This document shows positions 54,901 to 57,900 of a DNA stretch of 64,000 nt, piece after piece. Every line of letters starts with the position of its first letter. Position 1 is the stretch's first letter. Made by a program: the position numbers. Source of the DNA: Escherichia coli O127:H6 str. E2348/69 (GTDB lineage: Bacteria > Pseudomonadota > Gammaproteobacteria > Enterobacterales > Enterobacteriaceae); assembly GCF_000026545.1 (NCBI RefSeq), contig NC_011601.1. One strand, given 5' to 3'.

Positions 54901-57900
54901 TCACGCTTAACACCATTTTGCATGATGATGAGCTGGAACCCGCGCAACGGCTGATTACTGACCTCTACCAGATCGGTGTCGATGCGCTGATTGTTCAGGA
55001 TATGGGGATTCTGGAACTTGATATTCCGCCGATTGAACTGCACGCCAGTACGCAGTGCGATATTCGTACAGTAGAAAAAGCGAAGTTCCTCTCTGATGTT
55101 GGCTTCACGCAGATTGTGCTGGCGCGAGAGCTGAATCTTGAGCAGATCCGCGCGATTCACCAGGCCACGGACGCGACCATTGAATTCTTTATTCATGGCG
55201 CATTGTGCGTGGCCTATTCGGGTCAGTGCTACATTTCTCATGCGCAAACAGGGCGTAGCGCCAACCGTGGCGATTGCTCGCAGGCGTGCCGTTTGCCATA
55301 CACATTGAAAGACGATCAGGGGCGGGTGGTTTCCTATGAAAAACATCTGCTGTCGATGAAAGATAACGATCAGACTGCCAACCTCGGCGCGCTGATTGAT
55401 GCTGGCGTACGCTCCTTCAAGATTGAAGGGCGTTACAAAGATATGAGCTACGTGAAGAATATCACCGCCCATTATCGTCAGATGCTGGATGCCATTATTG
55501 AAGAACGTGGCGATCTGGCGCGCGCTTCATCAGGTCGTACTGAACATTTCTTTGTTCCATCGACGGAAAAGACTTTCCACCGTGGTAGCACAGATTATTT
55601 TGTGAATGCCCGTAAAGGCGATATTGGCGCGTTCGATTCGCCGAAATTTATCGGCCTGCCGGTGGGCGAAGTATTGAAAGTAGCGAAAGATCATATTGAT
55701 GTTGCCGTTACCGAGCCACTGGCAAATGGCGATGGCCTGAACGTGATGATTAAACGTGAAGTCGTCGGTTTTCGTGCTAATACGGTAGAGAAAACCGGAG
55801 AAAATCAGTACCGCGTCTGGCCAAATGAAATGCCAGCAGATTTGCACAAAATTCGCCCGCATCACCCACTAAACCGAAATCTTGATCATAACTGGCAGCA
55901 GGCACTGACAAAAACCTCCAGCGAACGTCGGGTGGCGGTAGACATTGAACTGGGCGGCTGGCAGGAACAACTGATTCTGACCCTCACCAGTGAAGAGGGT
56001 GTCAGCATCACACATACGCTGGACGGGCAGTTCGACGAAGCCAATAACGCCGAAAAAGCAATGAACAATCTGAAGGATGGTCTGGCAAAACTGGGGCAAA
56101 CCATCTATTACGCCCGCAATGTGCAAATTAATTTGCCGGGGGCGCTGTTTGTACCAAACAGTCTGTTAAACCAGTTCCGCCGTGAAGCCGCCGATATGCT
56201 TGATGCTGCGCGTCTTGCCAGTTACCAGCGCGGCAGCCGTAAACCGGTTGCTGATCCTGCGCCGGTTTATCCGCAAACGCATCTGAGTTTCCTCGCGAAC
56301 GTATACAACCAGAAAGCGCGTGAATTTTATCATCGCTATGGTGTGCAACTGATTGACGCGGCGTATGAGGCACATGAAGAGAAGGGCGAAGTCCCGGTGA
56401 TGATCACCAAGCATTGTCTGCGCTTTGCCTTCAATCTGTGCCCGAAACAGGCGAAAGGCAATATCAAAAGCTGGAAGGCGACGCCAATGCAACTGGTTAA
56501 CGGCGATGAAGTATTAACGCTAAAGTTTGATTGCCGCCCATGCGAGATGCACGTCATTGGCAAAATCAAAAATCACATACTGAAAATGCCGTTACCGGGA
56601 AGCGTAGTGGCATCCGTAAGTCCGGATGATCTGCTGAAAACATTGCCGAAGCGAAAAGGGTAAAACGCCAGTTTTCGGGTTACTCACCACTCATCAAATC
56701 TGCATGATATTGCCTGCCGGGTAAGGCGTCATGCCGCATCCGGCAACAAATGACTCAACGCTGTCCCGCTTCTGGTTTGCGCGATTTTTGCCAGTAAAAA
56801 TGCTCGCGCAAACCTTCCGCCGACTCTTCCGCCACAGCACGCAATTCATCGCTGTCCGCTTCATGACGCAGCTGATGATCCACATTCTTTACCCACATAA
56901 ATTCATGTCCTTTGTGCCCTGCCATGAGTTGTCCTGAGAACAGTGCACACGTTAATAAGACAACCGATAACGCCTTCGAAAACATCCCGCCACCTTTTTC
57001 TAACCTTTTGCCGCTATGATGCCGATCGTTTCTTGAGGTTATTATTCAGTTTTGCAAATTAGAGCAAAGAAATTCTGGAATCTTCCTTCCTGATTTTGCA
57101 TTGCATTCTGCCGTTGCGGCGATTTAGTGCTATTTTCGAGCACATTACACACGGAGGTAAACTTCGCCATTAAATAGTCACGATCACTTTATTGAAGTGC
57201 CTTTGAGCGTCGCCTCTAAGGCGCTTGGCAAAGAGTTATCGCTGGTGATGGTTTGATTACAGTTAATGAAAAGTTGTCATTTTTAACAACTGATATAGAC
57301 TGCCGAATCATCTGCACATAATTACGATTCGATAATGAAAAAATACCAGCAGCTTGCAGAACAATTACGCGAGCAGATTGCGTCGGGTATCTGGCAACCC
57401 GGCGATCGTTTGCCTTCGTTGCGTGACCAGGTGGCGCTTTCTGGCATGAGCTTTATGACTGTCAGCCATGCCTATCAGTTGCTCGAAAGTCAGGGATATA
57501 TTATCGCGCGACCGCAATCGGGTTATTACGTTGCGCCACAGGCAATAAAAATGCCGAAAGCGACAGTCATTCCAGTCACACGAGATGAAGCAGTCGATAT
57601 CAACACCTATATTTTTGATATGTTGCAGGCCAGTCGTGATCCGTCGGTAGTTCCGTTTGCCTCGGCCTTTCCCGACCCGCGACTTTTCCCCCTCCAACAA
57701 CTAAACCGCTCGCTGGCGCAGGTAAGCAAAACCGCCACGGCGATGAGCGTGATTGAAAACTTACCGCCAGGAAACGTAGAACTGCGTCAGGCTATTGCTC
57801 GTCGCTATGCCTTACAGGGCATCACCATTTCTCCTGATGAAATTGTCATTACCGCCGGGGCGTTAGAGGCATTAAACCTCAGTTTGCAAGCGGTAACTGA

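Follow-up and report, generated by a model that had tools for sequence, protein, structure and literature searches.

Between yncJ and ydcR, the chromosome of Escherichia coli O127:H6 str. E2348/69 carries a spacer of 349 bp (56986..57334). In a K-12-like genome, the same spacer measures 938 bp and holds hicA (177 bp), a gap of 45 bp and hicB (417 bp). The K-12 hicAB locus (hicA/yncN, b4532; hicB/ydcQ, b1438) is a type II toxin-antitoxin system with reverse gene order, and its toxin HicA is an mRNA interferase of about 58 aa. Positions given here are those of the whole stretch of DNA that was analysed, a 64-kb piece hereafter called the window. RefSeq features were transferred from NZ_CP059840.2 (E2348/69, EPEC O127:H6), with which the window is collinear; a 751-bp query spanning the spacer matches this record at 100%. 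The sole difference between the two sequences is a 1-bp indel near 39101, in an IS3-family remnant (ACAAAAGG in the window vs ACACAAAGG), which suggests that the record is another assembly of the same strain. The features discussed below are collected in Table 1.

Table 1 Features of the yncJ-ydcR, ydcL-ydcO and hokB loci in the window
Feature	Position	Strand	Evidence and remarks
hokB 3' half: distal leader and hok coding region	37308..37555	-	annotation, Rfam, blastn
Nested IS cluster splitting the hokB leader, 5617 bp	37526..43142		annotation and junction analysis
hokB mRNA leader 5' half (sok/mok region)	43143..43218	-	Rfam RF01794 and blastn to K-12
ydcL	52126..52794	+	RefSeq annotation
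ydcL-ydcO spacer, 34 bp	52795..52828
ydcO	52829..54040	-	RefSeq annotation
yncJ, DUF2554 family, 76 aa	56755..56985	-	ORF call and RefSeq annotation; left boundary gene
Kept yncJ-hicA intergenic DNA, 177 bp	56986..57162	+	alignment A1; equals 1787..1963 of the K-12-like sequence (L003 numbering)
Deletion 1 junction	57162..57163		alignment A1 columns 185-629; 445 bp gone relative to K-12
hicB codon 60, single base left	57163		alignment A1
hicB remnant 1, codons 61-79 (SPLNSHDHFIEVPLSVASK)	57164..57220	+	translation, tblastn E 2e-8, RefSeq pseudogene
Deletion 2 junction	57220..57221		alignment A1 columns 688-831; 144 bp gone, in frame
hicB remnant 2, codons 128-138 and stop (ALGKELSLVMV, stop)	57221..57256	+	alignment A1, translation
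hicB-ydcR intergenic region, 78 bp, unchanged	57257..57334	+	alignment A1
ydcR, 468 aa	57335..58741	+	ORF call and RefSeq annotation; right boundary gene

The sequence-only reading of this DNA had put the distance from yncJ to ydcR at about 350 bp, judged it too small for hicA plus hicB, and called the pair absent. The distance is as it said, and a K-12-type hicA, spacer and hicB together require 639 bp. Its refuting test, a Hic-like pair missed in 56986..57334 on account of short ORFs, turned up no such pair: the four ORFs of at least 25 aa that lie wholly inside the spacer, on either strand, are 25-42 aa long and have no significant match in Pfam. In a tblastn search of the whole 64-kb window, a K-12-type HicA found nothing (best E 0.95). 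HicB found a sole match, at 57164..57253 (E 2e-8), and RefSeq places a partial HicB pseudogene at 57164..57226.

To define the end points, the spacer was aligned with the corresponding DNA of the K-12-like strain EC600 and of CFT073 (three-way alignment A1). An alignment to K-12 was the check that had been proposed, and it shows hicA fully deleted and the spacer not empty, with 94 of its 349 bp coming from hicB as two in-frame pieces. The word "absent" is right in that no hicA and no usable hicB are left, and wrong in that hicB residues 61-79 and 128-138 remain readable at 57164..57256, on either side of a deletion scar. The upstream segment that has been kept stops 44 bp short of the position of the hicA GTG; it differs from the K-12-like sequence by 3 substitutions and is identical to that of CFT073. 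Deletion 1 comprises these 44 bp, the entire hicA, the 45 bp between hicA and hicB, and 179 bp from the 5' end of hicB; it takes hicB codons 1-59 and ends inside codon 60. Deletion 2 removes exactly 48 codons, hicB 80-127, which encode most of the helix-turn-helix domain. Each hicB piece carries one substitution with respect to the K-12-like sequence.

At junction 1, only 1 nt of direct microhomology is found, together with a 6-bp inverted repeat, GGTAAA / TTTACC, at the two end points. At junction 2, CTAAGG / CTAATG (or AAGG on the K-12 background) form a direct repeat that is short and imperfect. Both sets of repeats are given as observations only.

The domain content of the three alleles follows the same series. 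Pfam recognises HicB_lk_antitox (residues 3-67) and HTH_3 (residues 88-134) in K-12 HicB, HTH_3 alone in the CFT073 remnant, and neither of them in the remnant of the window. Of the parts that make up a HicAB module, the HicA gene, the N-terminal HicB-like domain of HicB and its C-terminal helix-turn-helix are all missing here. Descent from the HicAB family is recorded by the 94 bp that align in frame with hicB, by the tblastn match and by the RefSeq partial pseudogene. The 30 remaining codons (19 + 11) share one frame with no ATG and with an in-frame TAA just upstream. Because of this missing start codon and upstream stop, they are probably non-coding debris, and we would expect them not to be expressed.

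To follow the two junctions through the species, 36-mers centred on each of them were searched with megablast in 5426 complete E. coli genomes, with a 28-base word forced across the junction. The counts are lower bounds, as a SNP near the junction hides a genome (seen for the 22-bp hicA deletion allele described below); on this footing, the deletion 1 junction is present in 1059 of the 5426 genomes, CFT073 and ST131 among them, and the deletion 2 junction in only 26. These 26 genomes include E2348/69, other O127:H6 strains, MP1, A0 34/86 and isolates from bat, rodents, dogs and quail. Three of them were inspected (bat, MP1 and quail), and all carry both deletions in the same 349-bp layout, with 2-3 SNPs, so that deletion 2 is nested in deletion 1. 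The intermediate allele is that of CFT073. It keeps hicB codons 61-138 (the 3' 237 bp) with a recognisable helix-turn-helix and without a start codon. We take CFT073, ST131 and E2348/69 to be phylogroup B2 strains, and the other carrier genomes would presumably belong there too.

Other alleles occur at the same position. In a third one, hicA is frameshifted by the loss of 22 bp between direct repeats of TGCG, and hicB is intact (L008 808..962; L011 and L012 608..762; other E. coli). It is found in at least 805 of the 5426 genomes (199 + 606), on two SNP backgrounds with CACCCC or CACTCC beside the junction, which suggests recurrence or recombination. In NZ_CP065615.1, yncJ and hicAB are wholly missing, and 36 bp separate a 3'-truncated rlhA from ydcR. 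For about 49 of 5416 genomes, coverage of the 751-bp query falls below 80%, and therefore further independent rearrangements exist at the yncJ-ydcR locus.

Overall, we read the 349-bp spacer as an eroded chromosomal hicAB type II toxin-antitoxin locus made by two nested deletions, with a probability of about 0.93. In a first step, a 445-bp deletion would have taken 44 bp of promoter-proximal DNA, all of hicA and the part of hicB that encodes the HicB-like domain. Because hicA and this part of hicB went together, toxin and antitoxin function would have been lost in one event, which may be a survivable way to lose an addictive module. In a second step, an in-frame deletion of 144 bp would have eroded the orphaned helix-turn-helix domain in one sub-lineage. 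That the 445-bp deletion preceded the 144-bp one is indicated by the nestedness of the two and by their frequencies, and neutral decay would be the likely driving force.

A different view of the same scar is that the remnant has been kept for a function and that the deletions were constrained. The upstream region, possibly with a Sxy/CRP-dependent P1, would then read through the scar into ydcR, or the last 36 bp of hicB would hold regulatory sequence of ydcR. Turnbull and Gerdes are said to have described, in 2017, the hicAB promoters P1 (Sxy/CRP-S) and P2, the latter with the hicO operator. Both deletions do leave the 11 final hicB codons and the 78 bp between hicB and ydcR untouched, a sequence scan shows no terminator-like site between the kept upstream region and ydcR, and the 349-bp allele is nearly invariant (2-3 SNPs) across bat, mouse and quail hosts. 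However, closely related B2 genomes would show low divergence at any locus, and a scan for sigma-70 consensus promoters stays at shuffle level, with 2 found vs 1.2 expected. The promoter-like hexamers that can be assigned putatively to ydcR, at 57274..57311, are consensus matches and not evidence of function. We consider retention for a function very improbable, and keep to decay by two nested deletions.

The sequence-only reading had extended its statement to the whole window, which was said to carry no intact toxin-antitoxin module, hokB being degraded. The Rfam hok/sok leader family RF01794 is indeed split in two at hokB, with matches at 43066..43218 (70.3 bits) and 37447..37555; the former is hok-derived in its first half only, and its remainder runs into the end of an IS. 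By blastn to K-12, the break in the leader falls 71-73 bp ahead of the hok ATG and is accompanied by a 3-bp AAC target duplication. The start of hok has changed from ATGAAGCACAACCCTCTGG in K-12 to ATGAAGCGCTCTGG in the window, a net loss of 5 nt after ATGAAGC, in codons 3-5. Hence the native hok ATG (37452..37450) is out of frame; it now opens 34 codons of the mok frame, whose translation matches the Mok family weakly. The hok ORF has thus lost both its contiguous leader and the frame of its native start. With the promoter-proximal leader half and the sok region severed from it, and lacking its native start codon, hokB is not an intact module, and it would have been inactivated by IS insertion in the leader plus a frameshift at the start.

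The element that interrupts hokB is itself composite. The outer element of the IS cluster is of the IS3 family, with TGTACTG...CAGTACA ends, and holds ISEc13, ISEc21 and another IS3-family copy. All IS3-family reading frames in the cluster are annotated as frameshifted or partial. ISEc13 is present in the window as two 100% identical copies of 1552 bp, at 26061..27612 and 40722..42273, in direct orientation and 14.7 kb apart from start to start. The pair is a potential substrate for deleting the hrpA-aldA-cybB-hok segment. Next to the hokB leader, trg, which encodes a methyl-accepting chemotaxis protein, is cut to its C-terminal 444 bp (43335..43778), and about 1.3 kb is gone relative to K-12, namely the 5' part of trg and the promoter region.

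RefSeq contradicts the degraded state of hokB in that it lists an intact Hok family toxin of 44 aa, WP_032160888.1, at 37308..37442 on the minus strand, with a CTG start at 37442. Were this toxin functional, the statement that the window holds no intact toxin-antitoxin module would be wrong. The HOK_GEF coding core is preserved: the match of the 44-aa sequence spans positions 2-42 of a model 42 positions long (E 1e-23), and the sequence scores 89.6 bits against an NCBIfam cut-off of 73. On the other hand, the CTG lies at least 20 nt from the Shine-Dalgarno sequence of the native ATG, and this ATG leads to a stop after 34 codons in the mok frame. In addition, the IS cluster puts 5.6 kb between this ORF and the sok region with the promoter-proximal leader half, and a toxin severed from these parts would not make an intact module even if it were toxic. 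A functional Hok is very improbable in our view; the call is probably an annotation artefact and not a working gene, as far as the sequence tells.

Three screens covered other toxin-antitoxin candidates in the window. RefSeq features contain no toxin-antitoxin gene beyond the hicB pseudogene and Hok, a toxin-antitoxin family screen of the window's unannotated ORFs (40 aa or longer) returns only Hok, and an Rfam scan of the whole window finds no antitoxin RNA beyond the split sok/hok leader. At gathering thresholds, the latter scan reports this leader and only four sRNA genes, McaS (802..897), FnrS (7675..7792), MicC (14751..14871) and RydC (36829..36892). As far as their sensitivity reaches, these screens support the conclusion that the window would carry no intact toxin-antitoxin module.

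Several further features of the window differ from K-12 or are otherwise notable. At 10905..12129, an unannotated low-GC stretch of 1.2 kb (32-37% GC) adjoins integrase and DUF1627 pseudogene fragments beside ttcA, whose neighbourhood is the Rac prophage attachment region of K-12; a hydrophobic ORF of 59 aa within this stretch (11562..11741) has no family match. At about 24009..24367, a C-terminal remnant of paaX borders on an AraC-type helix-turn-helix remnant resembling FeaR, and the paa/tynA/feaB cluster of K-12 appears to be deleted. The gap (gapC) gene, at about 35098..36099, is annotated as intact in E2348/69 and is frameshifted with an internal stop in the K-12-like genome.

The second element that the sequence-only reading had found lacking at its K-12 position is the IS609-type insQ, between ydcL and ydcO; InsQ is a TnpB of the IS200/IS605 family. 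It had placed these genes about 35 bp apart, close to the measured spacing, and insQ is indeed lacking. A K-12-type IS609 is 1748 bp long (insQ and a tnpA pseudogene) and sits directly after TTTTTAT, without target duplication. The window has the unoccupied target at 52829|52830, within the ydcO stop codon; by blastn, the ydcL and ydcO flanks join without interruption and match the K-12-like sequence at 100% on either side of the insertion point. Neither an insQ ORF nor IS ends are found between ydcL and ydcO, and InsQ finds nothing by tblastn in the 64-kb window (best E 0.4). Both states of the site are common, at least 1983 genomes having the 36-mer of the empty site and at least 2609 that of the occupied site. 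The ydcL-ydcO site is a clean target never occupied by IS609.

The two "absences" have different histories, of opposite polarity. That hicAB was likewise never here and was inserted in the K-12 lineage, as the short spacer without any ORF matching a Hic family and the truly empty neighbouring insQ site might suggest, is refuted by alignment A1, in which 94 bp of the spacer align, in frame and base by base, with hicB codons from the interior and the 3' end of the gene, and by the intermediate CFT073 allele with its full 3' 237 bp of hicB; we give it practically no chance.

Beyond correct annotation, the significance of this locus is small. "Absent" becomes "deleted, with a scar", and a decayed toxin-antitoxin locus is told apart from an IS site that was never occupied. 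The allele counts provide a small concrete case of module loss in which the toxin goes with or before the antitoxin, consistent with published views of such loci decaying once they are unselected. HicA has been lost in at least 1864 of the 5426 complete genomes via two independent deletions, namely the 22-bp frameshift that leaves hicB intact and the 445-bp deletion that leaves only the helix-turn-helix half of HicB. It is conceivable, though we think it rather unlikely, that hicAB offers a natural series of toxin-first decay in E. coli, in which the window would be the next step, erosion of the orphan domain. If an orphan hicB or a helix-turn-helix remnant outlasted neutral decay, a residual antitoxin role, for example in anti-addiction or in regulation, would be indicated.

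Among known systems, one of the closest to the scar is K-12 hicAB itself. It occupies the same position between yncJ and ydcR, and the pieces in the window are almost identical to hicB codons 61-79 and 128-138 as well as to the intergenic DNA on both flanks; unlike K-12, the window is devoid of hicA, of the N-terminal domain of HicB, of most of the helix-turn-helix, of 44 bp upstream and of a start codon. The hicB pseudogene of CFT073 and ST131 shares the identical 445-bp deletion junction, whereas CFT073 retains codons 61-138 with HTH_3 and the window lacks a further 144 bp. With regard to hokB, Pedersen and Gerdes reportedly found in 1999 that hokA, hokC and hokE of E. coli K-12 are inactivated by IS elements. 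In the window, too, the regulatory leader of hok contains an IS with a target duplication of 3 bp; in contrast to K-12, the locus affected is hokB, further IS elements have inserted into the IS, and hok has a frameshifted start as well.

The loss of hicAB at yncJ-ydcR is lineage-typical and already known for B2-type E. coli, having been reported for phylogroup B2 (bioRxiv 10.1101/486399). More generally, decay of chromosomal toxin-antitoxin loci by deletion has been reviewed (PMC7167474, citing Fiedoruk et al. 2015 and Mine et al. 2009). As far as that review relates the ccdO157 case (Mine et al. 2009, cited in PMC7167474), it too concerns a chromosomal type II locus that degenerates by deletion at a conserved position in part of the species. 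It differs in belonging to another toxin-antitoxin family, and hicAB in the present lineage lost its toxin and HicB-like domain in one deletion, not by accumulating point mutations.
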